A stretch of DNA of 64,000 nucleotides, from assembly GCA_963664395.2 (NCBI GenBank), contig OY761159.2, forward strand, positions 1,600,001 through 1,664,000. The letters are read 5' to 3'. A program made the translations under genes and the position numbers. Below are positions 3,745 to 50,535 of the stretch, one piece after another. This stretch comes from Candidatus Binatia bacterium. Lineage in GTDB: Bacteria; Desulfobacterota; Binatia; Bin18. The notes beneath the pieces were generated by a model. It was not told the DNA's origin and made no database searches. It was given only the letters and a program-made list of their open reading frames with translations. Every line of letters begins with the position of its first letter. Within the stretch, counting starts at the first letter, position 1.

Positions 3745-3780
3745 CTATACCGAGAATGTTCCCAGACCGTGGGCAATATC
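3745..3780 (-). repeat. Probable decayed copy of the SDR gene 3' end (7041-7076)
   Basis: Reads DIAHGLGTFSV* versus DIDGGMVKYMV*; 22/36 nt identical, ungapped, same stop position (manual count). Confidence 0.45.
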
Positions 3781-3812
3781 TCGGTTACGAGCTAGTTCCA
3801 GACTTCGGGCGG

Positions 3813-3837
3813 CCCGCTATCGGAAAGCCGTAGCGGG
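3813..3837. terminator. GC-rich hairpin downstream of vapC
   Basis: CCCGCTA-TCGG-AAAG-CCG-TAGCGGG inverted repeat; no clear U-tract. Confidence 0.4.
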
Positions 3838-3846
3838 TCAACCCGC

Positions 3847-4248
3847 TCACTCCCGTGCATCCAGCCGGCGTAACTGGCCGGCCCAGCCGAGAATCCGCCG
3901 GTCGGCAGTCACCAGTTGATGACCGCCCAGCAGTGCGGTCGCCACGATCAGACGGTCGGCAGGGTCGCCAGGCAGGCTCGCGAGCCCGGCGGCATGGGTA
4001 CCTATTTCGCCATCCACGGTAATCTCGACCAGACCGTCGTCCAGAAGAGTGCGACGCCACGCACCAATGTCCTGCAGCAAGGTCAACCTGCCCTTATCGT
4101 GTAGCATAGCGACTTCCCAGAAAGAGATCGCGGAGACCGCGACAGCTTGTGCTGTCCAGGACGGCTCCACCGCTTCACGAGTCCGCCGTCCGAGCCTCCG
4201 GTCACCAATGCGCAGCCAGAGCAGAACGTGGGTGTCCAGCAGGATCAC
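3847..4248 (-). CDS. vapC: VapC/PIN toxin
   Basis: ILLDTHVLLW, SAISFWEVAML, DPADRLIVATA, LVTAD; GTG start overlaps antitoxin stop (GTGA). Confidence 0.92.
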   Translation of the reverse strand: MILLDTHVLLWLRIGDRRLGRRTREAVEPSWTAQAVAVSAISFWEVAMLHDKGRLTLLQDIGAWRRTLLDDGLVEITVDGEIGTHAAGLASLPGDPADRLIVATALLGGHQLVTADRRILGWAGQLRRLDARE

Positions 4249-4526
4249 AGCCGTCCGCCCTGGTTCGTACCAGCCATTACCTCCCATTCCACATCAACCG
4301 GTTCCATGATGTCGCCGTGTATCTGAAGGACATCCCGATCCCGGCCAAAAGGCGTCTTCGGGGTCGGGAGGTAGGGCGCTAGCCGCGAGATCGGACGGCC
4401 GTTCTTGGTGATGATGATCTCGGCGCCGCCCTCTGCGACTTCGTCCATGAGCTTGAGACATTTGGCCTTGAACTCCGACGCTTTCATGGTCCGCGGGCTC
4501 CGCACTCTATCGGATCTCTCTTTCAT
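4245..4526 (-). CDS. Phd/YefM-family antitoxin
   Basis: MKASEFKAKCLKLMDEV...IIITKNGRPISRL; start may be 4487. Confidence 0.92.
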   Translation of the reverse strand: MKERSDRVRSPRTMKASEFKAKCLKLMDEVAEGGAEIIITKNGRPISRLAPYLPTPKTPFGRDRDVLQIHGDIMEPVDVEWEVMAGTNQGGRL

Positions 4527-4573
4527 TGGACGTCTTCTCTCGTGGCGATTTGTCTGATCGCATATATGGCTAC

Positions 4574-4606
4574 AGTTATACGGCTATAACTATGGTCATG
4601 ACCATA
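4574..4606. promoter_or_regulatory. Tandem palindromes, likely Phd-VapC autorepression operator
   Basis: AGTTATA-cggc-TATAACT (4574-4591) and perfect TATGGTCATGACCATA (4591-4606) upstream of the antitoxin. Confidence 0.65.
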
Positions 4607-4699
4607 TAATGCCGTGCGGCCCACCGCAACGCGGCCCGCACCTTAAACATTTTGCACCCACGATACTCCGCCCTCTGTACGCAGGCTCTTCTCGCTACT

Positions 4700-6270
4700 T
4701 TACGGGAAGCGTACAAAGCTGAAGCGGCTTTTCTTCAGATCAGCCAAGAATGGCTGATCCTCACTTCTGAGCGTTTTCTCTATCCACACCTGATAGATCA
4801 AAAGCCAAAGGCGGTCTTTTTCTCGGGGGTCCGCGCCTCTGAGCTTTTTCGACCGCTCTCGGATTACGTTTTGAATACTTTTGATTCCGTGTCGTTTTGC
4901 ATACTCTCGTAGCAACACCATCGAAACGCAGTCATCGATTTCGATAATCTTTTTGGTGATCTCCTTTTCGAGCTTGTCCTCCGACATGTTGAATTGGAGG
5001 CCATATTTGAGCGAGTAGTACAGCGCGTGGGCGATGGCATCCGGGTAAATCCTCTGAATCCCAATCGCGAGGAGTTCATCAGCGAACTCACGCATAACTT
5101 TCTCCATTCCATCATAGCGATGTTTGTCGAAAACATGCTCGTCCAGGAGTGGAGCAAGATACGGATATAGCAATGCCAAGTTGACAACGTGTTGAACAAA
5201 AAGTCGCTTCGCTCGACGGTTGAGACGCTTAGGAATCATCTTGATAGCATAGTTCAAAACGGCATAGGTCTCCGCTCCGTGCGATAGCTTCAACGCTAAA
5301 TCTAGTAATGCTTGAACCGGCCCAAAGCTGATTTTTCCTTTGCCCGGAAATCGGAAACTGTTTAATGCTTGAACCCAATCCTCTTCCAGCGGCACAGGCA
5401 TGGGCAGAATGTCAGTCTTGCGTTCGTTCAGTGTAAGCTCGTACTCGCGTAACTGTATCGCAAGGTCATGGATGAAGTTCTCAGCTTCGTTGTGGGTTTT
5501 GGCGTAGAAAGTGTAGTCGTCGATATTACGACTAAACCCTTCGTATCCCTTCTGGAGCATCTTATGATCAATTTGGGTCAGTATTATCTCGGAAATAACA
5601 TTGGATGTGTGCGGCCCGATCAGGAGCCCGTTTGTCTGCCCGTCTCGGGTATTCTGAGTGGCTTTATCCAAAAGATTTCCCAACAACGAGAGGCGGTAGT
5701 TCTTTTTTGACTTGCTACGCCCATGCAGTGCCCATGGGATCGAGTGGGTGTAGATGCTGGGAAAGTATTTCGAGATGTCGGTACGGACGACATAGTGCGC
5801 ACCTGTCATCATATGAATATCTACCTCTTCGTTCTCGAAGCGTTCCTTTCCTTTGTAATTCATATGGAAAATACGCTTGCTCGAAGTTTTGCGAGCAAAG
5901 ATGCGGCTCACGGGCGTCTTCGGTTTCGCGCAGTGACTTTTTATTTTCGCCCAATGTCGCTTCAGGGCTAAGCACTGGACAATGTGGCTTTTAGGGTGGG
6001 GAACCCCATCTGACGAGGGATGTTAACATCACGCAGTGCTTCATAGCGGATGAAATCGTGTCTTGTTTTAAGAAGATTTTTCAACCTATTTTCATTGTTT
6101 TCCGTGATTAGCTCTAGAAGATTTTCCGGTATGAGTTTGGAAAGTCCTTCGGAGGTAAAACAGGGTGGAAGCTTTTCACCGAATAGACCGTAGTCAACCA
6201 AGCCTACGAACGCCTCGTCCGCCGAAAGACCGCGCCCTGTTGTTTGTCGCATGGACGTAAGCTCACTCAT
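4700..6270 (-). pseudogene. UG/Abi-type (defence-associated) reverse transcriptase with helical C-terminal region, split by a 1-nt frameshift near 6004
   Basis: N-part LVDYGLFGEKLPPCF...IPRQMG joins in a shifted frame to PHPKSHIVQCL...DISKYFPSIYTHSIPWALHG...GLLIGPHTSNVISEIIL...RNIDDY; restored length about 523 aa. Confidence 0.85.
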
Positions 6271-6353
6271 GGCGTCGCAGTGTTCACCGGAGTAGGTCCT
6301 CTTTACCTCGGCATGGTGTTTGCCAGATGGAGGGTTACAGGCGGGCCTTCCGT

Positions 6354-6758
6354 TTACGAGCGAGACGGCGCGATAATGTCGCACCGAGGGCCGCTGGCAC
6401 GGCTGAGCCGGCGGTCCAGCGTCATCAGCGGGCAGTCGAGCGCCTCGGCGAGGGCTACATACCAGGCGTCGTAGCTGGTCAGGTTGGCCCGTAATGCCCA
6501 GACGCGCTCGGCAAACGGCGCGAAGGGGAAATATAACTCAAGGGCAAGCCGCAGCAAGTCTCTGTGTGCGCTCGTCGCCTCAAGACGCGATATTTCGCCG
6601 GCGTGCTCCAGGCGGCGCAGAATATTGCTGGCCTCAACCAAGGCCAACTCCGGCCCGGCCAAGGAACCTTCGGCAAGGGCCGCCTCCGCCCATTGCCCGG
6701 CCTGCCCCGCATCGACCAAGGCCGCGACAAGCACGGACGCATCAACGACTCTCGTCAT
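6354..6758 (-). CDS. vapC: VapC/PIN toxin
   Basis: VVDASVLV, LTSYDAWYVALAEAL, LMTLDRRL. Confidence 0.92.
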   Translation of the reverse strand: MTRVVDASVLVAALVDAGQAGQWAEAALAEGSLAGPELALVEASNILRRLEHAGEISRLEATSAHRDLLRLALELYFPFAPFAERVWALRANLTSYDAWYVALAEALDCPLMTLDRRLSRASGPRCDIIAPSRS

Positions 6759-6991
6759 GTTCGGTCCGCATCACGGGCGTGCAGAATACTGGCCGGTCGG
6801 ACACGAGTTCCTGCGGCGTCCTTGCGGTCGCGCACCCCCTGTAACCATTCGTCAACAGTGGGCCGGGACGCAATGCGCTCTAGCTCTCCGCGCAGGAATT
6901 CCTGCATGGACTGGTGCTGCTGTGCGGCACGCGCCGCAAGTATGTCGCGCACGGTCTCGGGGACGCCTCGTATCGTAATTTGGACTGGCAT
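6755..6991 (-). CDS. FitA-like ribbon-helix-helix antitoxin
   Basis: QITIRGVPETVRDILAARAA...SMQEFLR; ATGA overlap with toxin; TGACAGCA direct repeats at 6991 and 7011. Confidence 0.88.
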   Translation of the reverse strand: MPVQITIRGVPETVRDILAARAAQQHQSMQEFLRGELERIASRPTVDEWLQGVRDRKDAAGTRVRPASILHARDADRT

Positions 6992-7040
6992 GACAGCATT
7001 ACACCATCGTTGACAGCAGACTGCAATCGACCCCTTCTCC

Positions 7041-7814
7041 CTACACCATGTACTTCACCATCCCGCCGTCAATGTCATAGGCCGCACCCGTAATAAAACT
7101 CGCCCGCTCTGATGCCAGGAAGGTCACCAAGCTGGCAATCTCTTCGGGGCGGCCGAAACGACCCAGCGGGATATTCGCCTGCGCAAACCCTTCGATCATG
7201 CCATCCGGGTCTTCAGGGTTAATCATCTTTGCAGCGTTCTCCCACAACGGAGTACGAACCGGCCCCGGACACACGGCATTGACCAAGACGTTGTCTTTGG
7301 CGAGTTCATCGGCCAATGTCTTGGTTAGACTAATCACCGCCGCCTTGGTCGCGTTATAATCAATCATACCACCACCCGGTTGCTTCCCGAAAATCGAAGA
7401 GATGTTGATAATCCGACCCCAGCGCTGCTCACGCATGCGCGGCAGGGCGAGGCGGGAACAGCGCAGCACACTAAAAAGATTCGCGTCAATATTTTCCTGC
7501 CAGGCTTTATCAGGCAGATCGAGCAATTGACTTAAATGCATCCCACCGGCGTTATTGACAAGAATATCGAGCCGGCCGAACCGCTCGCCTGTTTGGGCAA
7601 AGAGTTTTTCGATGTCCGCTACTTGGGTCATATCGGCCTGTATCGCCAGCACCCCAGAGCCCAGCTCACGCGCTGTTTGGTCGAGCTGCTCCCGGTTGCG
7701 GGCACACAGCGCAACGTGCACCCCTTCTTGGACAAAACTCTCCGCAATTGCGCGGCCAATGCCATAACTTGCGCCGGTGATGATTGCCACACGGTCCTGT
7801 AAACCAAAATCCAT
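7041..7814 (-). CDS. Short-chain dehydrogenase/reductase (SDR)
   Basis: TGASYGIG, LVNNAG, YNATK, NAVCPG; GAGGAGG RBS before ATG 7814. Confidence 0.95.
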   Translation of the reverse strand: MDFGLQDRVAIITGASYGIGRAIAESFVQEGVHVALCARNREQLDQTARELGSGVLAIQADMTQVADIEKLFAQTGERFGRLDILVNNAGGMHLSQLLDLPDKAWQENIDANLFSVLRCSRLALPRMREQRWGRIINISSIFGKQPGGGMIDYNATKAAVISLTKTLADELAKDNVLVNAVCPGPVRTPLWENAAKMINPEDPDGMIEGFAQANIPLGRFGRPEEIASLVTFLASERASFITGAAYDIDGGMVKYMV

Positions 7815-8138
7815 ACGTTCCTCCTCACAGTGCCATATGCGAGATTGCCTGCGTTGGTTGTGCGCGCCTATTTTCCTGGCATTCAAGAGACTGTCAAGAG
7901 AGGAAAAATGAAAATCGGTCCAGTGATGTTTTGGCGGGCTGCTCTCAAAAGAAAGCCCATCCTCATACCATACCCGTATGCAAGAACCAATACCCAGCGG
8001 TTAGTGGCGGAACCGACCTCTCCATCGTCCGCAGCACGGCGGCGTTGCGCGTCACGCCCAGGAAGCGCAAGATGTATCCGAACTCGTTGAGGGGCAAGGA
8101 AGTGCGCCGGCTGGAATGCCGGCGTGACCAACGCTGCT

Positions 8139-11190: not shown

Positions 11191-11380
11191 GTCAGTCCGG
11201 AAGCACGGTCACGGAATGCCGGGATCATAGAGCAACCCGCCCGCCTTTACTATACCCACAGACCGGCGGGGCGGGGCAAAGGGGGCAGGGCTACTAGCTG
11301 GAGGGCCTGCTATACTGTCCTGTGGACATACGACGAGTTGATGAGCGGTAGACAGAGTCCACAAAGGAGAAAGGGTGAAC

Positions 11381-12016
11381 ATGAATTACGTCCTGATTGA
11401 CTTGGAAAATACGCAGCCGGAACACCTGAGTGTTTTAGCCGGGCAGAACTTCAGGGTTCTTGTTTTTGTGGGCCAGAACCAATCAAAGATATCGTTTGAT
11501 CTCGTATCCGCCATTCAGCATTTAGGGAAAAACGCCGAATACATCAAAATTCAAGGCAACGGACCAAACGCCCTTGATTTCCATATCGCGTTTTATATCG
11601 GCCAGTTTTCCACAGAAAACAGCGATTCCCATTTCCACATCATTTCAAAAGATAAAGGCTTCGACCCGCTGATTAAGCATCTTGAATCGAAAAAGATCCG
11701 GGTACACCGGCATCCGGCTATCAACGACATACCACTTACAAAGCCTGCAAAAGCGAAAAAAGAGCCTGCTCACGTTTCAAAACCTGCGAGTTCAGTAATA
11801 AAGGCGGAGAACATTCAGAAAATCGTTGAGTTCCTGATTGCCCGAGGGAATGCAAAACCAAGGAAATTGAAAACTCTGTCCAATTCGATCAATGCACTAT
11901 TTTCAAAAAGCTTAGCAGAGAACGAACTCGACGCTCTCATAGACGAACTGGTCAAGCGCGGCGTCGTTATTGTCAGCAGCAATCAGACCAGCGTGAGCTA
12001 TCAGTTGAAAGGGTAA
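11381..12016 (+). CDS. PIN-like (NYN/PIN_7-type) nuclease with C-terminal winged-helix-like domain
   Basis: VLIDLEN, NALDFHIAFYIG, IISKDKGFDPL. Confidence 0.8.
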   Translation: MNYVLIDLENTQPEHLSVLAGQNFRVLVFVGQNQSKISFDLVSAIQHLGKNAEYIKIQGNGPNALDFHIAFYIGQFSTENSDSHFHIISKDKGFDPLIKHLESKKIRVHRHPAINDIPLTKPAKAKKEPAHVSKPASSVIKAENIQKIVEFLIARGNAKPRKLKTLSNSINALFSKSLAENELDALIDELVKRGVVIVSSNQTSVSYQLKG

Positions 12017-12067
12017 TTGTTGAAGCGCTTCCCAATTGTGGTACAAAATGACCGAGAGTAATCGCTA

Positions 12068-12529
12068 ATGATACGTCATGTGTTTCTGAGCTTTTCTATG
12101 GGGGACGAGGGCATTGTCAACGTCTTTCGCGGCCAAGCGGCGAACAGGCAATCGGTCCTGGTGTTTCATGACTACTCCATCAAGGAAGCATTTGAGTCCA
12201 CTTGGAAAATGAAGGCGGAACGTCTCATCCGCGCCTGTAGTGTCACTATATGTTTGATTGGCAAAACAACGTATCGGAGCAAAGCTGTCGATTGGGAGAT
12301 CAGAAGGAGCGCGGAACTAGGGAAGACCGTCATGGCGGTTTCCATTGAGCCGACGGCGCCAAGAGTTCCGCCGGCCCTTACGGAACTGAACGTGCAACCC
12401 CAGCCGTGGGATATGGAGAGAATAATAGGGGAGTTGAATGACCTCGGAACCGAATACGGTCGAACAAGAGCTTTTCGGAGAGCACGAATCTGGAACGTTG
12501 AACGAGACCGAAGCCTCGACACTGCTTGA
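12068..12529 (+). CDS. ThsB-like TIR protein (MTH538/DUF1863 type)
   Basis: RHVFLSF, DYSIKE, SVTICLIG, VDWEI with the putative catalytic Glu. Confidence 0.85.
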   Translation: MIRHVFLSFSMGDEGIVNVFRGQAANRQSVLVFHDYSIKEAFESTWKMKAERLIRACSVTICLIGKTTYRSKAVDWEIRRSAELGKTVMAVSIEPTAPRVPPALTELNVQPQPWDMERIIGELNDLGTEYGRTRAFRRARIWNVERDRSLDTA

Positions 12530-12965
12530 ACAGTACAAACTCTTTGTGGGAACCTCGGAAGCTCTGGTCTCTCGTCGGCAGCAAGTCAATACTTTCTTCC
12601 TTTCTGTCAATTCCATCATCCTTGCGGCTACGGGTCTCCTCATACGTGAGAAAACGGCAAATAGCTTAGTCGGTCCCGCCCTCATCGTGCTCGGTATGGG
12701 CGGAATGGCTCTCTGTTTCGCATGGCGGCGAATGATATTGTCCTTTGGTCAACTCAACCGGGGCAAGTTCGATGTCATCCATGCCCTCGAACGCAGACTG
12801 CCAGCCCGGACTTTTACCGCGGAATGGGTCGCTCTGGGACAAGGTAAGGATCCGTCTAAGTACAAGCCGTTTACGCGAACAGAGTCGTTGACCCCGTGGA
12901 TATTCGGTATGCTTGAAACATTGGTGGTCGTTGCTGGAGTCGTTCTATGGTTCTGGCAGGGATAG
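12438..12965 (+). CDS. Three-TM membrane protein, RipA/octameric-membrane-protein-like
   Basis: LEQYKLFV...SRRQQVNTFFLSVNS, W...QLNRGKFDVIHALERRLP, EW..LG; three hydrophobic helices; family name recalled, not searched. Confidence 0.7.
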   Translation: MTSEPNTVEQELFGEHESGTLNETEASTLLEQYKLFVGTSEALVSRRQQVNTFFLSVNSIILAATGLLIREKTANSLVGPALIVLGMGGMALCFAWRRMILSFGQLNRGKFDVIHALERRLPARTFTAEWVALGQGKDPSKYKPFTRTESLTPWIFGMLETLVVVAGVVLWFWQG

Positions 12966-12969
12966 AATA

Positions 12970-13413
12970 ATGAGCACACATCAAATCCACGTTTTTATCA
13001 GTCACTCCTGGGCCTATTCAAATCATTACGACACTTTGGAGGATTGGATATTCAACCGGAAATGGAGTCGAGGTCAGGCATCTCTCGACTTTCGGGATTT
13101 TTCCGTTCCAAGGAATGACCCAATTCATAATGCACCCTCCGACCGAGCACTCAGAGAGGCAATCTTTAACCAAATAGTCAGGTGTCACGTGGTCGTGATT
13201 CCGTTGGGAATGTATGCCACTTACAGTAAGTGGATCAGGAAAGAAATCGACGGTGCTAAACGCTACACAAAACCAATACTTGGCGTAAACCCGCAGGGAC
13301 AGGAACATCGCTCCTCTATCGTGGCCAATGCTGCACAAGAAACGGTTGGTTGGAACAGTAAAAGTGTCGTCGGGGCCATAGCTTGTATCGTGATTAAGCT
13401 CACTTCCGGCTAA
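12970..13413 (+). CDS. Second ThsB-like TIR protein
   Basis: HVFISHSW, DFSVPRNDPIH, GMYATYSKWIRKEI, KPILGVNP, VGWNSKSVV. Confidence 0.85.
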   Translation: MSTHQIHVFISHSWAYSNHYDTLEDWIFNRKWSRGQASLDFRDFSVPRNDPIHNAPSDRALREAIFNQIVRCHVVVIPLGMYATYSKWIRKEIDGAKRYTKPILGVNPQGQEHRSSIVANAAQETVGWNSKSVVGAIACIVIKLTSG

Positions 13414-13432
13414 TAATTTCGAGACAGTCGTT

Positions 13433-13738
13433 ATGGTGGAACGTCCGGTCACACATTTGCAGAATCCTCCCCATCCGGGCGCAATCGTCAGACGCCAGTG
13501 TCTCGCGCCTCTCGGCCTGTCCGTTACCAGGGCCGCCAAAGGCTTGGGAGTCACGCGCCAAGCGCTCTCCGATCTCGTCAACGGCAGGGCTGGAGTCTCG
13601 GTCGAAATGGCGGTCCGATTGTCAAAAGCCTTCGGGTCGAGCCCGGAGACATGGCTCGGTATGCAGATGGCCTACGACCTCTGGCACGCGCGGGATAGAG
13701 TCGAGCAGATCACCGTCGAGAAGTTCGAGAGCGCGTAG
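13433..13738 (+). CDS. higA: Orphan HigA-family HTH antitoxin
   Basis: NPPHPG, LGVTRQALSDLVNG, SPETWLGMQMAYDLW; no upstream higB; start may be TTG 13457. Confidence 0.88.
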   Translation: MVERPVTHLQNPPHPGAIVRRQCLAPLGLSVTRAAKGLGVTRQALSDLVNGRAGVSVEMAVRLSKAFGSSPETWLGMQMAYDLWHARDRVEQITVEKFESA

Positions 13739-13760
13739 GCGTAGTTCCCGCATCCTCAAG

Positions 13761-13867
13761 AGGGCAATTCTGCGGCGCTTGGTCAAAGAGAGATTCGCGT
13801 GAAGCAAAAGGACTGTGAACGCTTGGTAAAAAGTGTCAAGCAGGCAGGAGCGATTCGCACGCAATGA
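13761..13867 (+). pseudogene. Remnant of a RelE-type toxin C-terminus plus HTH antitoxin N-terminus
   Basis: RAILRRLVKERFA* overlaps (GTGA at 13799) with MKQKDCERLVKSVKQAGAIRTQ*. Confidence 0.5.
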
Positions 13868-13901
13868 AAGAAGTTCCAGCAGGCGCGGATTGGAAGAGTG
13901 A

Positions 13902-14171
13902 CTATGCCGCTTTCCTTGCCCGCGCAGCTTTATCGAGATCGTAGGTTGCCTGGAGATTCAGCCACACCTTCGGCGTCGTGCCGAGAACGGCGGCGAGGTC
14001 CAGCGCCGCGGCGGCAGTGACGCCACGCTTTCCGCGAATGAGTTCGTTCAGTCGGGTCCTCGTCCAACCGACCTTCGCGGCGAATGCCGCTTGGCTTATT
14101 CCTTGAGGCGCGAGAAATTCCTCCAAGAGGATTTCGCCTGGGTGAAACGGATTCTTCGGTTGTCTCGCCAT
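13902..14171 (-). CDS. higA: HigA antitoxin
   Basis: PFHPGEILLEEFL, RLNELIRGKRGVT, WLNLQATYDL. Confidence 0.93.
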   Translation of the reverse strand: MARQPKNPFHPGEILLEEFLAPQGISQAAFAAKVGWTRTRLNELIRGKRGVTAAAALDLAAVLGTTPKVWLNLQATYDLDKAARARKAA

Positions 14172-14183
14172 TACGCCTGCTCC

Positions 14184-14474
14184 TTATAAATGGTAATCAA
14201 CGACTTGAACATTGAACGCACTCCCCGCACGCCATTGAAAGACCAGCCGCCATTGCCTGTCAATGCGGATCGAGTAGAAACCGTCCCATTCCCCTTTCAA
14301 CTTCTCCAGCCGATTACCAGGTGGGACCCGAAGGTCTCGTAAGTCAGCCGCGTCATGCAGAAAGAGCAGCTTCCGCCGGGCAGTCCGACGAAGCGACACT
14401 GGTAACGTCCGCACAGCGCGTCCGCTATCGTCAAACAGTTGCTCAGCCAGCGCGTTGCCGAATGTCTCAATCAC
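14184..14474 (-). CDS. higB: HigB toxin
   Basis: DLRVPPGNRLEKLKG, YSIRIDRQWRLVF, terminal DYH. Confidence 0.93.
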   Translation of the reverse strand: MIETFGNALAEQLFDDSGRAVRTLPVSLRRTARRKLLFLHDAADLRDLRVPPGNRLEKLKGEWDGFYSIRIDRQWRLVFQWRAGSAFNVQVVDYHL

Positions 14475-14509
14475 GTTTCCGCATTACCAGAAACCGATAA
14501 TGCGGAAAC
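14475..14509. promoter_or_regulatory. Probable HigA operator
   Basis: Perfect 12-bp inverted repeat GTTTCCGCATTA-N11-TAATGCGGAAAC abutting the higB start. Confidence 0.7.
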
Positions 14510-14669
14510 CCATCTCCCCACTATGCAGAAAAGAGTGTTAGAGGACATCCGGGAGCATTAGCCGCCTATCTGGAGAGCCTATACTTGATTCTTGATATAT
14601 TTATATATTATGATGGTCCTAATTTTTATTATAGTCATTTATTTTAGTAGCAATTAAGGAGGTGTTTCG

Positions 14670-15617
14670 ATGGAATATACAAACCAACAGCTCAACAACT
14701 ACGTCAACCGGATTAAGCTCACTCAGGAACAAAAATCGTCTTACGCGAATCAAATTGACAATTTGAAAGACAATGTTCTCAAAGCCGTTAATGGCATGGA
14801 GAACACTAAAGTAACGAAGGTCAAAAGAGCAGGTTCGTGGAAGAAAAGCACCGCTCTGGCACCAAAGGGAGACTATCCTCTCGATATAGACATGGTGTTC
14901 TACCTAGCCCTTAAAGAAGATGCTTCGTTTGACGCCGAGGAGCTTCGGGAGGAGATTATCAGCGTACTGTGCGAGGCATATCCTAACAAGGAAAGATCAG
15001 ATTTTACTGATGGTCAAAAGACTATTGGCGTCGTATTCAGGGGCTCCGGCCTTGAGGTGGATATTGTGCCGTTTATCCCGGAAAAGGGTAACACGACCTA
15101 TGGTAGACAACCTCGAAAAAAACTCAATTCAGGCGAGTTCAAAACCAGCGTTGACAAGCAATTGGATTTTGTAAGCAAAATAAAAGACAAGTGCTCTAAT
15201 TTCACTTCTATTGTTCGCATCCTGAAAAGTTGGAGAAACTATAAGGAGCTGGAACTTTCCTCTTTCTCCATTGAATTGGCAGTAGCCAATTTGATCCAGA
15301 CAGGGAGAATATCTGACTCTTCAATAAACCAAACAATTATCACTTTCTTCGAGTTTTTCGGTAACGGTACTCCCGTCAAGGTGTACTTCTCAGGGGCTAT
15401 CGGACCACAAACTGGCAGTGCTCCGTGGATAGCAGATCCAACGAACAACGAGAACAATACGGTCAGACTATCTGATAGCGAATGGGACGAGGTTATGGAA
15501 ATAGCCGAAAGCGGCTTTGAGAGCATTTCTTATGCACAAACCGTACAAGAGACCGGAAAAACATTGGATTTATGGAAGGAAGTTTTTGGACCAAGTTTCA
15601 ATATTAAGGAGGGATAA
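14670..15617 (+). CDS. cdnC: CBASS CD-NTase (CdnC-like oligonucleotide cyclase)
   Basis: AGSWKKSTAL, DID, VDIVP, SFSIEL, IADP, WKEVFG; AAGGAGG RBS; low GC. Confidence 0.9.
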   Translation: MEYTNQQLNNYVNRIKLTQEQKSSYANQIDNLKDNVLKAVNGMENTKVTKVKRAGSWKKSTALAPKGDYPLDIDMVFYLALKEDASFDAEELREEIISVLCEAYPNKERSDFTDGQKTIGVVFRGSGLEVDIVPFIPEKGNTTYGRQPRKKLNSGEFKTSVDKQLDFVSKIKDKCSNFTSIVRILKSWRNYKELELSSFSIELAVANLIQTGRISDSSINQTIITFFEFFGNGTPVKVYFSGAIGPQTGSAPWIADPTNNENNTVRLSDSEWDEVMEIAESGFESISYAQTVQETGKTLDLWKEVFGPSFNIKEG

Positions 15618-15623
15618 TACCTA

Positions 15624-16106: not shown

Positions 16107-16119
16107 ATAAGGCAAAACA

Positions 16120-17010: not shown

Positions 17011-17011
17011 A

Positions 17012-17566: not shown

Positions 17567-17577
17567 AGAGAAAAAAG

Positions 17578-18417: not shown

Positions 18418-18494
18418 TACTTTGCCATGAGAGTCATTGTGAACAGTTTGTATGTACTCCTCAATTAGCTCCTGGGTCGTTGTGAGAGAACTGA

Positions 18495-18835: not shown

Positions 18836-18880
18836 GGGCGCTCTTGCTGATGAGCGGGACGGTACGCCCGGAAACCGCGG

Positions 18881-35678: not shown

Positions 35679-35760
35679 CACTCCAACTCCACAATCTTCA
35701 AGCTCTCGGTCCTCCGATAGTCCGCAATCTTGACCGCCGCCTGATGATGCTCGTCGGCCC
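35678..35760 (-). pseudogene. Probable C-terminal remnant of an RM DNA methyltransferase-type gene
   Basis: ADEHHQAAVKIADYRRTESLKIVELE* resembles the recalled AAVKIVDDRGIESLK tail; TGATG-coupled to the TIR gene. Confidence 0.45.
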
Positions 35761-35843
35761 CAACCAGCCTTGAGCTTGCGCGCTAGCTTGGCTCAGCCGT
35801 CTTTGGGAGCCGGCTATGGGTAAAGAACACTTGGCGGGGAAAC

Positions 35844-44029: not shown

Positions 44030-46231
44030 TTACGTTTGGTGCATGAACGCCCGCACCAGCCGGATTTCCTCATAGGTGTAGTCTTCGCCCAGCATCGCTT
44101 TGACCGGAGCCAGGGCGGTGGCGCCGGAGCGGTCTATCGCGCGTCTAATGGCCTCCAGACGGTCCGCCGCCGGTAGCAATGGGCGGAGGTCAACGTCCTC
44201 GCCGTCGGCGACTAGCTTTTCAACATGGCCCACTACCGTGCGGAGAGAGAGGCCGCGTTCTTCTGCGACCTCAGCAAGTGACCGGCCCTGCTCAAGCAAC
44301 TGTTTCGTTGCAATATGCGTTGAACCTTGTCGACTCACCTTACTGCCTTGCGACTCTCTGCCACGTCGCAGGACCGGTACAGAGCGCTCCGCAAGACCCT
44401 GCTCATCGGCGTGCGAACGAATAACCTCCAGAAACGCCTCGCCCCACTGCTCCAGTTTCGCCGCGCCCACCCCCGAGATATGAGACAGGCTGTCGCGGCT
44501 CTGGGGCAAATAGGCCGCCATCTGCCGCAGCGTCCGGTCGCCGAAAATGACGTACGGCGGCACGTTGCGTTCCGTGGCGAGCCGGCGGCGTAGCCCGCGC
44601 AGCTTGTCAAACAACGCCGGGTCGTAGGCATCCTCAGCCTCGCTTGCCGGCGCGTCACGTCTGCGCCACGCCAGCGCCGGGTCGGAGCCGGTACGGTGTG
44701 GGGCCGGTTCGTCCCGTTTGGCGCGCGTGAGGGTCAGATTCTCTCGGTTCTTGAGGAACTTCCGGCCCGCCGCGGTCACGCCCAGGGTGGCATATTCGCG
44801 GCTGTTCTTGCCAAGCAAGCCCTTGGCGAGCAAAAGCTCGGCCAGTTCTTTGAGGTCGGCATCGGACAGGTCGGCGACGATACCGTATACGCTTAACTTG
44901 TCGTGCCGCAGCTCCCGCACGCGTTTCGTGTCAGCGCCGCGCAGTACCTGGCTCACGTGGGCGAGGCCGAAGCGCTCGCCCGTACGCACCACTGCCGACA
45001 GGATTTTTTGGGCGATGAGGGTGGCGTCGAACTCCTCGCGGGGCGTGAGGCAGACGTCGCAGCCCGCGCAGTTGTCCTGCGGCCAGTCCTCGCCGAAGTA
45101 GGTCAACAGATATTTTCGGCGGCAGGTCTGCACACCGCAGAACTCAATCATCCGCGCCAGCTTATCCTGCGCGTTGCGCCGCTCCGCCGCGTCCTCTATC
45201 TGGTCGATGAAAATATCCTGTTTCACCTTGTCGCCGTAGGAGTAGAACAGAACACACTCGCTGAGCAGGCCGTCGCGTCCAGCGCGGCCCGTCTCCTGGT
45301 AGTAGCCTTCGATTGACTTGGGCAGGTCATAGTGCACGACCAGCCGGACATCCGGCTTGTCTATACCCATCCCGAAGGCGATGGTCGCCACGATGATGAG
45401 CGCGTCGTCGCGGATGAATTTCTCCTGAGTCTCGCTCCGTACTGTATTGTCCAGGCCGGCGTGGTAGGGCAGTGCGGAAAGACCCCTGTCACACAGGCTG
45501 GCAGCCAGGTCTTCCGTGCTCTTACGGGAAAAGCAGTACACGATGCACGACTCGCCCCGGTACTTGTGCAGCAGGTCCGCCAGCGCAGCCACGGAGTTTC
45601 GCTTGGGCCGCACGGTGTAGGTCAGATTGGCACGGTTGAAGCTGGCGATGAACTCTTGCGACTGGGTCAATTCGAGTTGTTCGGCAACGTCACGGCGGAC
45701 CAGCTCGGTCGCGGTGGCGGTCAGGGCGATGAACGGGACGCCCGGCAGGAGACGGCGCAGATCAACCAAGTTGCGGTAGTCGGGCCGGAACTCGTGCCCC
45801 CACATGGAGATGCAGTGCGCCTCGTCCACGGCGACGAGGCTGACCTTCAGCTCGGCCAGGAAATCCTGGAAGCCGGATAACGCCAGCCGCTCCGGGGCGA
45901 CGTACAGGATTTTGACCGCGTTCCGCCGGACGCGCGTCCGCACGCTGTTCAGTTCCGGGTAGGTCAGGCTGCTGTTGATGAACTCCGCGGCAATCCCGTT
46001 GGCCTTGAGCGTATCCACCTGGTCTTTCATCAGGGCGATCAGTGGCGAGATCACCAGCGTCAGCCCGTCGAAGCGCAGCGCCGGCAACTGATAGCACAGG
46101 GATTTCCCGCCGCCGGTGGGCATCAGGACCAGCGTGTCGCGCCGTTCCAGCACGCTGGCGATGATCTCGGCTTGTAGCGGACGGAACTCGTCGTAGCCGA
46201 AATGTTTCTTGAGCAGGTCCAGCACGGTCAC
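44030..46231 (-). CDS. recQ: RecQ helicase (RQC, HRDC, C-terminal HTH)
   Basis: MPTGGGKSLCYQLP, DEAHCIS.WGHEFRP, ATIAFGMGIDK, QETGRAGRDG, PPYVIF. Confidence 0.97.
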   Translation of the reverse strand: MTVLDLLKKHFGYDEFRPLQAEIIASVLERRDTLVLMPTGGGKSLCYQLPALRFDGLTLVISPLIALMKDQVDTLKANGIAAEFINSSLTYPELNSVRTRVRRNAVKILYVAPERLALSGFQDFLAELKVSLVAVDEAHCISMWGHEFRPDYRNLVDLRRLLPGVPFIALTATATELVRRDVAEQLELTQSQEFIASFNRANLTYTVRPKRNSVAALADLLHKYRGESCIVYCFSRKSTEDLAASLCDRGLSALPYHAGLDNTVRSETQEKFIRDDALIIVATIAFGMGIDKPDVRLVVHYDLPKSIEGYYQETGRAGRDGLLSECVLFYSYGDKVKQDIFIDQIEDAAERRNAQDKLARMIEFCGVQTCRRKYLLTYFGEDWPQDNCAGCDVCLTPREEFDATLIAQKILSAVVRTGERFGLAHVSQVLRGADTKRVRELRHDKLSVYGIVADLSDADLKELAELLLAKGLLGKNSREYATLGVTAAGRKFLKNRENLTLTRAKRDEPAPHRTGSDPALAWRRRDAPASEAEDAYDPALFDKLRGLRRRLATERNVPPYVIFGDRTLRQMAAYLPQSRDSLSHISGVGAAKLEQWGEAFLEVIRSHADEQGLAERSVPVLRRGRESQGSKVSRQGSTHIATKQLLEQGRSLAEVAEERGLSLRTVVGHVEKLVADGEDVDLRPLLPAADRLEAIRRAIDRSGATALAPVKAMLGEDYTYEEIRLVRAFMHQT

Positions 46232-46237
46232 GTTTCC

Positions 46238-46315
46238 CTATCCCCGCCGCGCGTCTTCAGGCATTTCGCGGGCATGACGACGTGCTTTCGGTGTGATCTC
46301 TCCGCCGTCCAGCAT
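46238..46315 (-). repeat. Diverged duplicate of the last 26 codons of recN (48820-48897)
   Basis: MLDGGEITPKARRHAREMPEDARRG* versus MLGGVEITPEARRHAREMLEGARRG*; 58/78 nt identical, ungapped (manual count). Confidence 0.92.
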
Positions 46316-46500
46316 TGATAAAATTGTTTAATGAAACGCCCTGGCGGTGGGCGAGGTCTTGAGCTTTACGCTTCAAGTCATCGCGCATACGAAGGGAAAG
46401 CATCGCCATAGTATCGTCTCCTGTCTCTTACAGATAACGAGCCACTAACTCCTGAGGCGTCATCACCCGCCATCCCAATTGGGGCAGATCGGCCGAGCCG
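46316..46500 (-). pseudogene. Truncated TA pair: PIN-type toxin tail and RHH antitoxin head
   Basis: ..LPQLGWRVMTPQELVARYL* (stop 46428), AGGAG RBS, then MAMLSLRMRDDLKRKAQDLAHRQGVSLNNFI cut at the recN copy. Confidence 0.65.
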
Positions 46501-46576
46501 GAATGCCTACAATGAGCTGAAACATTTTTTCCCGCAAGTCGTTCTTGCAATCAGGGAGGCGAAAAACGATCCCGGC

Positions 46577-46607
46577 TTGACAAGCGGACAAAAATGTCCG
46601 TTATAAG
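46577..46607 (+). promoter_or_regulatory. hicAB promoter with operator
   Basis: TTGACA, CGGACA-AAAA-TGTCCG palindrome, TTATAAG; probable leaderless GTG at 46612. Confidence 0.65.
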
Positions 46608-46611
46608 AGTT

Positions 46612-46818
46612 GTGACGGGTAATGAATTCATCCGCAAAGTGAGAAAACTGGGTCGAGCAAATAAAGTGACGATTCGGTTTGTTGCCCGTCGCGGAAAAGG
46701 TAGCCACGGAACATTATTCTATGGTTCACAGTTCACAATCGTTCGGAACCCCAAGGCTGAGCTCAAAACAGGAACGCTTCGGGCTATGCTTGACCAACTC
46801 GGTATCAACGACTTGTAG
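46612..46818 (+). CDS. hicA: HicA toxin
   Basis: RGKGSHGTL, ELKTGTLRAML.QLGI. Confidence 0.9.
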   Translation: MTGNEFIRKVRKLGRANKVTIRFVARRGKGSHGTLFYGSQFTIVRNPKAELKTGTLRAMLDQLGINDL

Positions 46819-46827
46819 GAGACGCCT

Positions 46828-47265
46828 GTGCAAAGCTTCATTTATCCTGCCAGACTGAAACCCGATAGAGTGGATGGTGGCTTTGTTGTCACATTCACCG
46901 ATCTGCCTGAAGCCATTACTCAGGGAGAAGCTGTTGAAGATGCCCTCAACGAGGCGGCCGACTGCCTTGACGAAGCCATTGTCAATCGGATTGTCACGGG
47001 CCTACCTATCCCCCTGCCGTCTGTTGTCAAGAAAGGGTGCTATCCGGTGCCGCTGGCTGCGCACAGTGCGGCCAAGGCCGCGCTCTATCTCGCTCTCCAA
47101 GAGGCCCGGGTGACAAAGGCAGACCTGGCAAGGCGACTGGACTGTGACGAGAAAGAGGTACGTCGTTTGCTGGACCCCCGCCATCCGTCGAAACTGCCTC
47201 GGCTTGAGGCTGCCCTGGCAGCAATAGGCCGGCGTTTGATTGTTGGGTTCCAAGCAACTGCTTGA
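46828..47265 (+). CDS. hicB: HicB antitoxin
   Basis: FVVTFTDLPEAITQG, C-terminal HTH LARRL..KEVRRLLDP. Confidence 0.92.
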   Translation: MQSFIYPARLKPDRVDGGFVVTFTDLPEAITQGEAVEDALNEAADCLDEAIVNRIVTGLPIPLPSVVKKGCYPVPLAAHSAAKAALYLALQEARVTKADLARRLDCDEKEVRRLLDPRHPSKLPRLEAALAAIGRRLIVGFQATA

Positions 47266-47435
47266 GACGGGCGGGCATTCCCGATCACATCCGATCATTC
47301 TCTTACCAACTGAAAAGGCCCAGGAAGCATAGAACATTTGCGCTCGCTTGGGGTACCGCCAAACGTGTCACTCCCTTGCCTTCCTTAACATCTTCACGGC
47401 CTTCGCTTCCTGGCGCAACTCTCTGTCGTTTCAGT

Positions 47436-48453
47436 CTAACCATTGCCATGATCGTCATCATCTGAATCATCGTCATCATCTGCATCGTCATCATGATCGT
47501 CCTCATGGTCATCCTCATCGTGGCCGGCAAAACCGGACGGAACGAGCGCTCCGCCGAGTACCCAACTCCGAATGATCTCAATCTCCTCATCGGACAAAGG
47601 CGGCATATCCCGAGGCATACGACGACCGCGGGTGGGCGCATCCACGATCTTCTCTACGAGATAACTCTCATCCGGACGACCCGGATTGATAAGCAGGGTT
47701 CCATCAGAGAGCTGACCGCTTCTGGCAGCGATCGTATTCCGTGGCATATTCTCTTCGGCCAAATCCAGGTTCGCGGCAGGGCCGTTCTTGTAGTCGCTCG
47801 AATGGCAGCGGAGACACTTCGCGTTAAAAATTGCTTGCACCGCGTCCAGGTCGTCACCAGTTGTTTCGTCCTCATTGTAGGCCTCAACGATGCCGGTGTT
47901 CTGGGTGGGCAGGGAATAATCCACTCGCAGATTGGCCGCACCCATCTCAGCCCCAGTTGTTGCGTTAATAATAAGTACCTGGTCATTGAGCACATCCACA
48001 CCCGTCCACGACTCCTCAAAGCTGAAGGCTTCATTAAATTCGACGTTCCCAGGCACGGCAACCGTAACGGTATGCTCAATAATAACCGCCTCGCAGTCTT
48101 TAGCCCGAATCTCGACGCCAACGGTATGCTCACCAGAACCCAAGTGGGCATAGTTTATTACGCCGGAATAGCTCGTATTGAGGGGGGCGCCCTCTACTTT
48201 CCGCTGCACGTCTTCTCGTGGACCACAGCACGGAAGGGAGTAGTCGTGCTGGGTGGTTCCATCAATCCGAAGGTAGACTGACACGGGGGCATCATTTGTT
48301 GCAAAGGCCCAGCCGTGGACCGTTTCAATCCCAGCAACGCCGGGTCTTGTTGGCAGGGCTATCCAAGAACGCTGTAATGGTGTCTGCCCATGCTGCTGAC
48401 GCTGTCAAAATGAGTATGCCAAGAGCGACCGCCAGGGTTCGGTGTTTTTTTAT
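47436..48453 (-). pseudogene. Exported c-type cytochrome domain protein with His/Asp tail; ATA start and a frameshift near 48343
   Basis: AAGGAGG then ATA-KKHRTLAVALGILILTASAAWA signal peptide; frame switch to GVAGIETVHGWAF; CLRCH, PG.PDESYL, RMP..PL. Confidence 0.75.
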
Positions 48454-48626
48454 CGTTCTCTTCCTCCTTCTATTTTACAGACAGTCCGACCGGGTGCCTC
48501 CACACGATAGATTCGGCGGAAATTATCGTAGAATCCCAGACAAGGGTCAAGTTTTTATCTCTGCTCGGGGAGTTTTATATTTGACCGCTGTTACAATAGG
48601 TCGTGACCCGCACTCCAGGAGGATCC

Positions 48627-48815
48627 ATGAAGCGTATAGCGATTGTGCTCATTGCAGGGGTTGTCGTGTCAGCGCTGCTCGCCTTGGCCATTGTGCTTGG
48701 CGCTCCCCAGCCGCCCCCTCCGCTGGAAAGTATCAACACCCCATTCCGGAGCGTGGACTTCTCCGACCTTGCTCAGCTCAAGCGCTATCCCGCTCGGGAC
48801 GGGGAAAGCTCTTAG
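48627..48815 (+). pseudogene. N-terminal fragment of a membrane-anchored alpha/beta hydrolase
   Basis: TM anchor, PPPLESINTPFRSVDFSDL..YPARDG, then stop 4 bp from the recN stop; GGAGG RBS. Confidence 0.6.
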
Positions 48816-48819
48816 TCCC

Positions 48820-50535
48820 CTATCCCCGCCGTGCCCCCTCAAGCATCTCGCGCGCGTGGCGGCGGGCCTCGGGCGTGATTTCCACACCGCCCAGCATACG
48901 GGCGAGTTCTTGGAGGCGTTCGCGCTGGGTGAGACGTTGGGCTGAAGAGATCGTGCGACCTCTGGTTGTTTTTTTGGTCACGGTGTAGGCATGGTCGGCA
49001 AACGCCGCGATCTGCGGCAAATGCGTAATGCACAGCACTTGATGTTGGTCGGCTAAGGCTTTGAGCCGACGCCCGACGACCTCGGCCACCCCACCGCCGA
49101 TGCCCGCGTCCACTTCGTCAAAAATCAGTGTCGGCGTCGCTTCCGCCGCTGCACTGAGTGCCTTGAGGGCGAGCATGAGCCGCGAGAGCTCTCCTCCGGA
49201 TGCGGCCTGGATGAGCGGCAAGAGCGGCTCACCGGGATTTGCAGACAGATAAAATTCGACCTGATCACAGCCGCGCCCTCCGAGACGCCGGCCCTTTTGC
49301 GTAAACGGAGAACCAGTCGCCCCCTCGGTTCCATCCTCCTGATGTTGCAGAAATCGGACGTCAAAGCGTGCGCCCTGCATGCCGAGTTGGCTTAACTCGG
49401 TTTGGATGCTTTTCTCAAGATTCCGGGCTACCTCACGCCGCTCTTTCGACAGCTCTTGCGCCCAGGACCACGCCGCTTGCGCAGTCTGGACAACTTCTTG
49501 TTGTAGTGTGGCAATCGCCTCTTCACCGCCTTCGATGCGTTCCAGCTCTTGTTCCAGAGCGACCTGCCGGGCCAGAATCGCCTCAATACTCCCTCCATAT
49601 TTTTTCTTGAGACGCGAGATATGCATAAGGCGCGTATCAATCTCTTCCAAACGCTCAGGGTTCGGACTGAGGCGCTCGCCATATTTGCGTAAGAAGAGCG
49701 CCGCCTCTTCGACCTGGGCCAGCCCATCACTCAGGAGCGCTACCACTTCGTTCAGGCTTTCATCCACCCGGACCAGTTCCCGCAGTTGCGCCACCAGGCG
49801 CCCAAGCTGATCCGTTACCGCGCCGTCGCTGTCAGTGAGTACCGCTTCTCCACCAGACGCCGCCTGATACAGCTTTTCGGCGTGAAGGAGAATGGTACGT
49901 TCTTGGCGCAACTGCTCTTCTTCTCCGGGCTGTAGGGCGGCGCGGTGAATTTCCTCGACCTGAAAACGGACGAAGTCCTGGCGGACCTCAGCCGCTTCCT
50001 TGTCCTCGGTCAGCAGGCGCACGCGCTCCCATACCCGCCGGAGGGCATGATAGCGCGTTGCCATTTCCTGGACGTGCGGAGTCGCGTCAGCGAAATCGTC
50101 AAGCAGCTGGAGAGCAGAATCGGCTTCGCGTAAGACCTGTTGTTCATGCTGTCCATAGATGTGTATCAGCCGGGCACTGAGCTGACGCAACAGCGTAACT
50201 GTGGTCAACCTGCCGTTCAGATACACCCGGCTCCGCCCACTAGCCGCAATCACCCGGCGGACGAGGAGTTCCTCGGCTTCGAGCAGTTCCTGTTCCGCGA
50301 AGAGGGGGGCGAGGCGCGCGTGGTCGAGGCTGAAGACTGCCTCGACCACGGCTTCTTTGGTATCCCGGCGAATCAGGTCGACGGTCGCTCGGCCGCCCAG
50401 GGCCAGGCCGATGCCGTGCATGAGCAGGCTTTTGCCCGCGCCAGTCTCTCCGGTGAGCACATTCAGGCCGGACTCGAACGATAGTTCGAGATCATCGATC
50501 AAGGCTAAATTTTTAACGTGCAGATGACGCAGCAT
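48820..50535 (-). CDS. recN: DNA repair protein RecN
   Basis: LTGETGAGKS, ASGGELSR, IFDEVDAGIGG, CITHLPQIAA. Confidence 0.98.
   Translation of the reverse strand: MLRHLHVKNLALIDDLELSFESGLNVLTGETGAGKSLLMHGIGLALGGRATVDLIRRDTKEAVVEAVFSLDHARLAPLFAEQELLEAEELLVRRVIAASGRSRVYLNGRLTTVTLLRQLSARLIHIYGQHEQQVLREADSALQLLDDFADATPHVQEMATRYHALRRVWERVRLLTEDKEAAEVRQDFVRFQVEEIHRAALQPGEEEQLRQERTILLHAEKLYQAASGGEAVLTDSDGAVTDQLGRLVAQLRELVRVDESLNEVVALLSDGLAQVEEAALFLRKYGERLSPNPERLEEIDTRLMHISRLKKKYGGSIEAILARQVALEQELERIEGGEEAIATLQQEVVQTAQAAWSWAQELSKERREVARNLEKSIQTELSQLGMQGARFDVRFLQHQEDGTEGATGSPFTQKGRRLGGRGCDQVEFYLSANPGEPLLPLIQAASGGELSRLMLALKALSAAAEATPTLIFDEVDAGIGGGVAEVVGRRLKALADQHQVLCITHLPQIAAFADHAYTVTKKTTRGRTISSAQRLTQRERLQELARMLGGVEITPEARRHAREMLEGARRG

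Follow-up and report, generated by a model that had tools for sequence, protein, structure and literature searches.

How did a second, diverged copy of the end of recN come to lie beyond a small block of toxin-antitoxin (TA) genes, directly beside recQ? The question is raised by a stretch of 64,000 nucleotides (nt) of Candidatus Binatia bacterium (assembly GCA_963664395.2, contig OY761159.2, positions 1,600,001 to 1,664,000), hereafter called the window. An initial annotation of the window, made from the letters alone, had described a recurrent arrangement at up to four loci (recN, an SDR gene, an aminotransferase gene and an MFS gene), in which an intact core gene is followed by cargo and then by a decayed copy of the core gene's own 3' end. 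We have followed the arrangement through the whole genome and through 28 genomes of the genus, which are denoted here by G numbers, with individual loci denoted by L numbers. The recurrent, recombinase-free placing of TA and defence genes beside intact housekeeping genes, with a same-orientation copy of the gene end beyond the cargo, holds in the genome and in the genus. The repeats are probably the scars of a recombinase-independent insertion of foreign cassettes at the borders of intact genes, of the class known as 'insertion with long target duplication'.

The recN|recQ locus is composed of the following features:

44030..46231, minus strand, recQ, the core gene on the far side, which abuts recN directly in G013
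46236..46315, minus strand, recN 3'-end remnant, in frame and with its stop codon kept
46316..48817, mosaic cargo enclosed by recN and the remnant, its modules 80-97% identical to sequences at the same site in other species
46316..46409, minus strand, 5' fragment of a truncated antitoxin gene (HicB-family/RHH, ~33 codons left), which runs out of frame into the remnant (Pfam HicB, PF05534, on the open reading frame (ORF) 46257-46409)
46428..46550, minus strand, 3' fragment of a toxin gene that is longer in G002 (alignment with L040; no Pfam match of its own)
46594-46818, plus strand, HicA
46828-47265, plus strand, HicB-like gene
47436-48284, minus strand, cytochrome c-like ORF
48818..48897, minus strand, functional repeat copy, comprising the last 77 nt of recN with its stop codon, plus 2-3 nt
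48820..50535, minus strand, recN, intact core gene (Pfam SMC_N/AAA_23)

When the window was compared with itself by BLAST, one repeat of this kind was retrieved, the direct repeat 46236-46315 = 48818-48897 (75% identity over 80 nt, E = 4.4e-9); its score of 40 was reached by 0 of 500 shuffles. In the same frame the remnant reads MLDGGEITPKARRHAREMPEDARRG and the recN tail MLGGVEITPEARRHAREMLEGARRG, and 15 of the 20 mismatches fall at third codon positions (p = 1.7e-4). The remnant ends 6 nt before the start of recQ. The distal cargo gene is truncated, as had been noticed at the outset: the antitoxin gene, full length in G002, is cut after ~33 codons and joined to recN position -77. Its homology breaks off at ...ATCAATGC|, with a 4-nt overlap (ATGC) with recN, and this is the only junction that could be read for microhomology. 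The neighbouring toxin fragment is a candidate PIN-type gene on our reading of the translated G002 ORF.

The recN protein shares 82-86% of its amino acids with 11 orthologues of the genus, 68-78% with four others and 55% with the most distant full-length one. recN and recQ are neighbours across the genus, separated by spacers that range from ~9 nt (G013) to 2.7 kb in the 28 genomes. These spacers are mosaics, in which modules 80-97% identical between species are combined differently. Most species carry an older and more decayed recN remnant beside recQ, and the remnant in the genome under study (G000) is distinct from it. Of 78 positions, the remnant has 51-61 (in most cases 58-61) in common with functional alleles from the genus, whereas with the older remnants of other species it agrees at only 40-44 of the 75-78 positions compared; orthology of the G000 remnant with the old one was thus rejected. 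At the recN end of G011 (L020:3153-3258) a perfect 48-nt direct repeat encloses a spacer of 10 nt and the last residues of the protein are altered, which is a young duplication made in place. A diversity-generating retroelement was rejected: A stands in the distal copy at 9 of the 20 recN mismatches and at similar or lower frequency at other loci, so that there is no adenine bias. Pfam searches found no reverse transcriptase in the recN cargo.

The recN junction is bridged by contigs of two other studies (X10 record 9 and X1 record 3), which contain recQ, the remnant and the truncated antitoxin; it is therefore no assembly artefact. A third run contains the entire window with no difference at all and may be where this DNA comes from. 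Parts of the window were also found in runs labelled as sponge metagenomes. One X1 contig skips 271 nt at window 46240-46512 (46241-46511, 30-nt side), a gap that would take out both the remnant and the TA fragments; a population variant or another species may be behind it. In run X9 no contig covers 46221-46541. No conclusion is drawn from the X1 skip or from the X9 gap.

The initial annotation had proposed to align the end of every gene in the genome to its surroundings. The G000 assembly comprises 5.04 Mb in 14 contigs, with an estimated contamination of 5.4%, and 4227 genes were called on it with our own simple hexamer-scored ORF picker. Three queries were taken from each gene that measured at least 450 nt (3446 genes), namely its final 100 nt (+10), its initial 100 nt (+10) and a 110-mer from mid-gene, and were searched against the ±15 kb around it. 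Matches were kept at a score of at least 28, and paralogues and large copies were separated from fragments, that is, copies with homology over <35% of the gene and ≤500 nt. For the 3' tails, 28 genes had a fragment copy downstream on the same strand as opposed to 6 upstream, with 1 downstream and 2 upstream on the opposite strand. The mid-gene controls gave 3 and 3 on the same strand and 1 and 0 on the opposite strand, and the 3' ends thus stand in clear excess over both the strand and the mid-gene controls. The 5' heads show the mirror pattern, with copies on the same strand upstream of 19 genes and downstream of 7 (opposite strand, 1 and 2). Outward copies accordingly number 47 versus 13 inward ones (p = 6e-6), and gene ends exceed mid-gene segments with an odds ratio of 5 (p = 5e-6). 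The gene-end pattern is real and not confined to 3' ends, contrary to the specificity originally proposed.

Curation by hand retained 20 of the 28 3' cases. The 8 that were dropped (gene starts 50117, 1805273, 2167418, 2311011, 3257051, 3263402, 3274775 and 4609005) are tandem or internal repeats, ends resembling insertion sequences (IS) or larger block duplications. In the 20 curated cases the repeat is 44-253 nt long and 75-99% identical and has its copy 255 nt to 11.2 kb away; its end falls anywhere from 9 nt short of the stop codon's last base to 40 nt past it. The inserts measure 255-11249 nt, all <20 kb. With about 20 + 10 cases in one genome the footprint appears to be unusually frequent here, the counts being those of this genome. 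The scan also picked up many very large ORFs of G000 with internal repeats near their 3' ends (period ~450-460 nt), which appear as same-strand upstream matches ~360 nt away.

To describe the cargo, 108 ORFs at 17 loci of the 3' type and 56 ORFs at eight loci of the 5' type were annotated with Pfam. Domains of TA, restriction-modification (RM), CRISPR or abortive-infection (Abi) type occur in 14 of the 20 curated 3' cargos. The TA genes include RelB/YafQ, an HI1420-type antidote after fmt, TumE, HicAB at recN, an orphan antitoxin, and VapBC-type PIN pairs after a Zn-dehydrogenase gene and after a UvrD-like helicase gene. Further domains are AAA_21, T5orf172/DUF4041 and DUF2283, the last of which we take to be linked to TA systems. 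RM cargo comprises an Eco57I-like methylase, a type III RM system and MmeI-type genes with nested remnants; a Cas9 gene follows an Nramp gene, and a complete type I-F cas operon follows lptE. Among the 5'-type cargos, a type IIG RM gene precedes a MaoC gene, ureD and ureE are separated by a 10.9-kb island (L072) with a type I RM system and a reverse transcriptase, and metabolic cargo is found at other sites. RM genes lie in the inserts at L015, L017, L069 and L072 and at none of the four loci of the window, where the cargo is of TA, TIR, reverse transcriptase or cytochrome type. The same footprint also surrounds non-nuclease cargo: an FMN-binding protein gene, cupin/glyoxalase genes, the orphan antitoxin, an FAD oxidase gene and the cytochrome c-like ORF.

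No integrase, resolvase or transposase was found by Pfam among the 62 ORFs of the window, nor inside any cargo (108 + 56 ORFs at the 25 loci), as the initial annotation had maintained for the window; the one exception, an IS1595 fragment, lies beyond a remnant. The whole genome contains 5 Phage_integrase matches and 1 resolvase fragment, none of them inside cargo. No motif is common to more than 4 of the 20 junctions at cargo starts and ends.

Two cargos deserve separate mention. At L017 (G000 C1 4086864-4091478) the scars are nested, with the remnant of an MmeI-type gene end (4091258-4091395) followed by that of the core CMD-family gene end (4091396-4091478), which indicates two successive insertions. 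The reverse transcriptase of the ureD|ureE island (L072:7163-8869) is a second one besides that in the window.

Comparison with the relatives provides the state before insertion. After the Zn-dehydrogenase gene (L009), the site is empty in G011 and G012, where overlapping matches show the repeat to be single-copy; in G013 and G017 the gene abuts the downstream flank, with no overlap shown. The junctions at this gene are variable, since its remnants start at -64 in three genomes, at -76 in one and, for a second remnant in one genome, at -19. Empty sites with a single-copy repeat were likewise found in 6 genomes at L004, in 8 genomes at the Rieske gene (L015) and in 14 of the 28 genomes at ureD|ureE. 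Empty sites occur in single-contig relatives. The L004 repeat, identical at 140 of 141 nt, is a young event. The type I RM operon of the ureD|ureE island is also found elsewhere: several other genomes carry it at an unrelated locus that lacks ure sequence, its homology starting ~20 nt before the first start codon; therefore, at least the first insertion at ureD|ureE needed no flanking homology.

L004 shows two peculiarities of its own. The YcjX/DUF697 genes lie downstream of the block of hydrolase and RelB/YafQ genes in G000 and upstream of it in G034, and 75 nt located upstream of the hydrolase gene are found again behind the TA pair; the arrangement looks like a circular permutation. In addition, L004:6092-6321 (G000 C1 about 1150095-1150324) belongs to a repeat family of ~230 nt, of which G000 has at least 8 more members (86-94% identity) and other genomes of the genus have copies too; the family may represent miniature mobile elements or genes for a small RNA.

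The second locus of the window at which an insertion is evident lies between the SDR gene and typA:

3703..3712, minus strand, second copy of GTGTAGGGAG, which supplies the ribosome-binding region of typA
3713..7036, cargo at SDR|typA, delimited from Pfam and relatives
3847-4526, Phd and PIN genes
4700-5911, reverse transcriptase
5968-6384, ORF
6354-6991, FitA-like antitoxin and PIN genes
7041..7886, minus strand, SDR, intact core gene with its stop codon inside the 10-mer 7037-7046

From the window alone this site is not significant: the best same-strand downstream score of the last 100 nt of SDR is 12, a value reached by 61% of genes on the wrong strand. The tails of the aminotransferase and MFS genes are at chance level in the window as well, and recN is the only secure case from sequence alone, as the initial annotation itself had cautioned. 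The SDR stop codon lies within the 10-mer GTGTAGGGAG, of which the window has exactly two copies (7037-7046 and 3703-3712); two or more copies were found in 0 of 100 shuffles. In 5 of the 28 genus genomes SDR directly abuts typA and the 10-mer is single-copy. Given the exact 10-mer and the five empty sites, the SDR site has genuinely received an insertion, accompanied by a short duplication in which 15 of 19 nt match around the 10-nt exact repeat; the 36-nt copy suggested previously is not borne out in its length. At the empty site the SDR stop codon overlaps the ribosome-binding region of typA, and an insertion that keeps both genes working must therefore duplicate the overlap. The cargo modules of the site are combined differently in other species. 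The match of the reverse transcriptase ORF to the RVT_1 profile (205 positions) is limited to positions 61-192, and an 83% identical copy of it is found at a different locus in G001.

Are the two copies of a gene end one sequence that has decayed in place, as the term 'decayed copy' implied? Decay in place appears to account for them only in part. A wobble bias was found: over 20 pairs, the 260 mismatches are distributed 67/44/149 over codon positions 1/2/3 (149/260 at third positions), which departs from uniformity (p = 5e-16) and also from 0.29/0.27/0.44, our own rough approximation of what is expected for a neutral remnant beside a constrained gene (p = 2.5e-5). Compared with the functional gene ends of other species, the Rieske remnant reaches 82-88% identity in the 16 closer ones and 71% in two divergent ones; with the end of its own gene it shares only 77%. 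The body of the Rieske gene is closest to its nearest relative, G039 (93-96% in most windows of the comparison); towards G039 the last 100 nt fall to 81% and the downstream flank stands at 87%, the non-native stretch starting near the start of the repeat. From the third-position bias and from a remnant nearer to the alleles of other species, it follows that the two copies often appear to behave as different alleles, and not as one copy decayed in place. Allelic copies would agree with an import of the entire block through homologous recombination, and also with a capture by homology on one side; they agree less well with duplication and subsequent decay alone. The young events at L004 and in G011, with identical or nearly identical copies, run counter to allelic import.

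Our favoured reading, which we hold to be probable, is as follows. A TA, restriction, CRISPR-Cas or other cassette would be joined into the chromosome by host replication or repair, through template switching, through the filling-in of a staggered break, or through homologous pairing on one side combined with illegitimate joining on the other. In the process, 10 to about 250 nt of the target would be duplicated; in the events that survive, the duplicated piece would contain a stop or start codon, one copy completing the flanking gene and the other staying behind as a remnant beyond the cargo. The whole block would then spread and be reshuffled between species of the genus, ordinary homologous recombination taking place in the conserved genes on either side; this would turn the sites into hotspots with mosaic cargo and make different alleles of the two copies. 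What we infer here is how the first join was catalysed, by which route the DNA entered and what part selection played. The competence genes that the initial annotation had proposed to look for (ComEC, a ComEA-like protein, DprA and RecA) are present; the same families occur in 10-14 of 14 control genomes and are therefore given little weight.

Several points weigh against this reading. The codon-position bias exceeds the rough expectation for decay in place, and a pure target duplication requires later allelic exchange. A simple one-sided-homology event at recN predicts a foreign patch, and none was visible either in recN or over the initial 440 nt of recQ. The 4-nt overlap was read at one junction and can be due to chance. 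Six of the 20 cargos have no defence or TA domain (other domains or none). The gene set comes from our own simple ORF caller, and the scan counts are those of a single genome. Finally, several sub-mechanisms fit equally well, the first join itself being unobserved.

The explanation that survives best beside insertion with target duplication is a homology-driven one, although we consider it rather unlikely. According to it, a circle or linear piece carrying a copy of a host gene end enters by a RecA-mediated single crossover at the homologous gene end and loops out again through the repeats, the gene end acting as an attachment site without an integrase. RecA is present, and repeats of 44-250 nt are in the range sufficient for RecA pairing. 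The allelic behaviour of the copies and the Rieske non-native stretch that begins near the repeat start agree with it, and so does recN, where it is the remnant and not the functional copy that looks foreign, as expected if the crossover took place at the repeat's right-hand end. On the other hand, neither circles nor excision junctions were seen; at least the first insertion of the type I RM operon at ureD|ureE was independent of homology, RecA could not use a repeat as short as the 10 nt at SDR, and the perfect 48-nt repeat of G011 encloses only 10 nt. That the gene-end repeats are working attachment sites today, through which integrase-free mobile cassettes loop out as circles and re-enter the genomes of the community by host RecA, is a doubtful proposition; if true, sponge-associated bacteria would possess a genome-wide, homology-addressed exchange of defence and TA genes.

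Integrase islands in the 3' ends of tRNA and protein genes, as well as cis-mobilisable elements with att sites, also leave the gene end duplicated as a direct repeat. In such integrations the incoming element restores the gene end and the original end is displaced. Site-specific elements with a replacement gene end, whose integrase has since been deleted or acts in trans, would thus yield copies that diverge like alleles, as seen here. We nevertheless find this origin quite unlikely: the inserts examined contain no integrase and the 5 tyrosine recombinases of the genome all lie outside cargo, the junctions share no motif or common core, the crossover positions differ even at a single gene (-76, -64 and -19 at L009), distal cargo genes are truncated, many inserts measure just 250-850 nt, and 5' ends are hit too.

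It is improbable that the cargo itself drives its insertion, with RM or TA nucleases breaking the chromosome and the cassette being captured at the break, as in the selfish-element model for RM systems. Many of the cargos are indeed RM genes or nuclease-type toxins, and the accessible portion of the report on RM genes discussed below (PMC2853133) proposes a common RM property, e.g. double-strand breakage, behind such insertions; the same footprint, however, surrounds the non-nuclease cargo and the 10-nt filler in G011. Chance similarity, tandem paralogy or an assembly artefact is very improbable and largely refuted, for although three of the four tails are at chance level in the window alone, many same-strand scan matches were paralogues or internal repeats (45 and 39) and the assembly has 14 contigs with some estimated contamination, the opposite-strand and mid-gene controls are near zero, empty sites occur in single-contig relatives and independent contigs bridge the recN junction.

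The initial annotation knew of no described genome-wide system of this kind; the same footprint has, however, already been named for RM genes. Insertion with long target duplication of RM genes is said to go back to Nobusato et al. in 2000. The accessible portion of a later report (Furuta, Abe & Kobayashi 2010; PMC2853133) characterises it by direct repeats of >30 bp, an insert of <20 kb, the lack of mobility genes and a repeat that is single-copy at the empty site of a relative; the repeats vary in length and often span a start or stop codon, the target gene staying intact. That portion deals with RM genes only, R and M genes having been the search criterion, lists 9 cases found by intraspecific comparison plus some from a repeat screen of many genomes, and ties the insertions to an RM property. 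Here, repeats of >30 bp were found at recN (80 nt) and at nineteen further loci (44-253 nt), the 10-19-nt SDR repeat falling below that length; the inserts of 255-11249 nt are free of mobility genes; and single-copy empty sites were found at L009, L004, L015 and L072, with recN abutting recQ in G013. Unlike the RM-only cases, the present ones involve TA, type I-F CRISPR-Cas, Cas9, TIR and non-defence cargo and both gene ends, their copies are often allelically diverged, and their sites are genus-wide hotspots with mosaic cargo. The footprint is therefore a known class, extended here to many cargo types, to both gene ends and to genus-wide hotspots. Literature searches (outside subscription journals and supplements) found no paper reporting it with TA, CRISPR-Cas or other defence cargo.

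A displaced 3' end beyond integrase-free cargo is also known from arrays of type VI secretion system (T6SS), Rhs and contact-dependent inhibition (CDI) genes. For these, the accessible portion of Kirchberger et al. 2017 (PMC5361080) proposes one-sided homologous capture, in which a conserved gene part anchors the arriving DNA while its far end is joined illegitimately; the former 3' end is left downstream as an orphan, no integrase takes part, and successive events build the array. As far as that portion goes, such arrays displace a functional variable toxin tip together with its immunity gene, whereas here the ends are those of ordinary housekeeping genes, 5' ends are included and no foreign patch is visible in recN. 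Homology-facilitated illegitimate recombination has reportedly been studied by de Vries & Wackernagel (2002), Prudhomme (2002), Meier & Wackernagel (2003) and Jackson (2009). Core defence hotspots, with variable anti-phage cargo between fixed core genes and many sites without a detectable mobility gene, are the subject of Johnson et al. 2023 (PMC10250203), the accessible portion of which proposes spread by recombination in the conserved flanks, calls the building of hotspots an open question and, unlike the present analysis, reports no gene-end scars.

Gene-end remnants would then be physical scars of the step that assembles defence islands and core defence hotspots. Additions of TA modules, restriction systems, type I-F CRISPR-Cas, a Cas9 gene and TIR effectors beside intact core genes appear to have taken place in the genus without a dedicated recombinase, and a footprint known for restriction genes appears to be independent of the cargo. 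Such scars can be searched for mechanically in any genome, and could be used to date and count events, to find hotspots and to design transformation experiments.

The remainder of the window has the same general character, Pfam annotation of its 62 ORFs revealing a core-gene backbone (typA, SDR, a MoxR/VWA pair, rpsA-cmk-aroA-tyrA-hisC-pheA, accA, miaA, the aminotransferase gene, SulP, MFS, recQ and recN) broken by small TA and defence blocks. The features of the other loci are:

11191..18880, defence island between MoxR (18881-20308) and VWA (9598-11190)
33581..34780, plus strand, aminotransferase, intact core gene
34791..35681, minus strand, CAP12/Pycsar-type TIR effector gene, an insertion
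35755..35840, plus strand, weak candidate for a decayed copy of the last ~48 nt of the aminotransferase gene with the original spacer, from comparison with the G018 empty-site sequence
37953..39110, minus strand, MFS gene, for which the claimed 3'-end copy is unsupported

Of the four loci originally put forward, recN thus stands with its 80-nt repeat and SDR with a 10-19-nt one, and the other two fare less well. The insertion of the TIR gene after the aminotransferase gene is genuine, being shared only with G012 and G031 among the 27 other genus genomes searched. The best same-strand downstream score of the aminotransferase tail is 14, which 20% of genes reach on the wrong strand, and its own tail compared with the far flank is not significant (score reached by 136 of 1000 shuffles). 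The G018 empty-site sequence scores 18 against the far flank, a value reached by 5 of 1000 shuffles, and the 3'-end copy may be regarded as a weak candidate. The MFS tail likewise scores 14, again reached by 20% of genes on the wrong strand; its copy was rejected as chance (score reached by 304 and 470 of 1000 shuffles), and SulP, its supposed cargo, is found in most of the genus.

The island between MoxR and VWA contains PIN7, two ThsB-type TIR genes, 8xMP, HigBA and a cyclic-oligonucleotide-based anti-phage signalling system (CBASS: SMODS, HORMA, AAA and WYL). The site is empty, with a gap of 14-18 nt, in G009, G015, G036 and G037. A border repeat was looked for and matches at only ~10 of 13 nt; it was not counted. 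The PIN7 gene, the two TIR genes and the 8xMP membrane protein gene occupy 11375-13413, beside HigBA (13902-14474), and no ThsA-like partner for the ThsB-type TIR genes was seen among the ORFs scanned. The CBASS-like operon (14670-18417) consists of genes for a SMODS nucleotidyltransferase, a bacterial HORMA protein, an AAA ATPase, a 187-aa ORF and a WYL regulator, and its G+C content is low (42-46%, as compared with 57% for the genome). The 187-aa ORF has no Pfam match and is possibly the effector. T6SS Tle1-like phospholipase domains lie on partial or split ORFs at two places in the genome, window 62688-63485 and L005:7766-8936.

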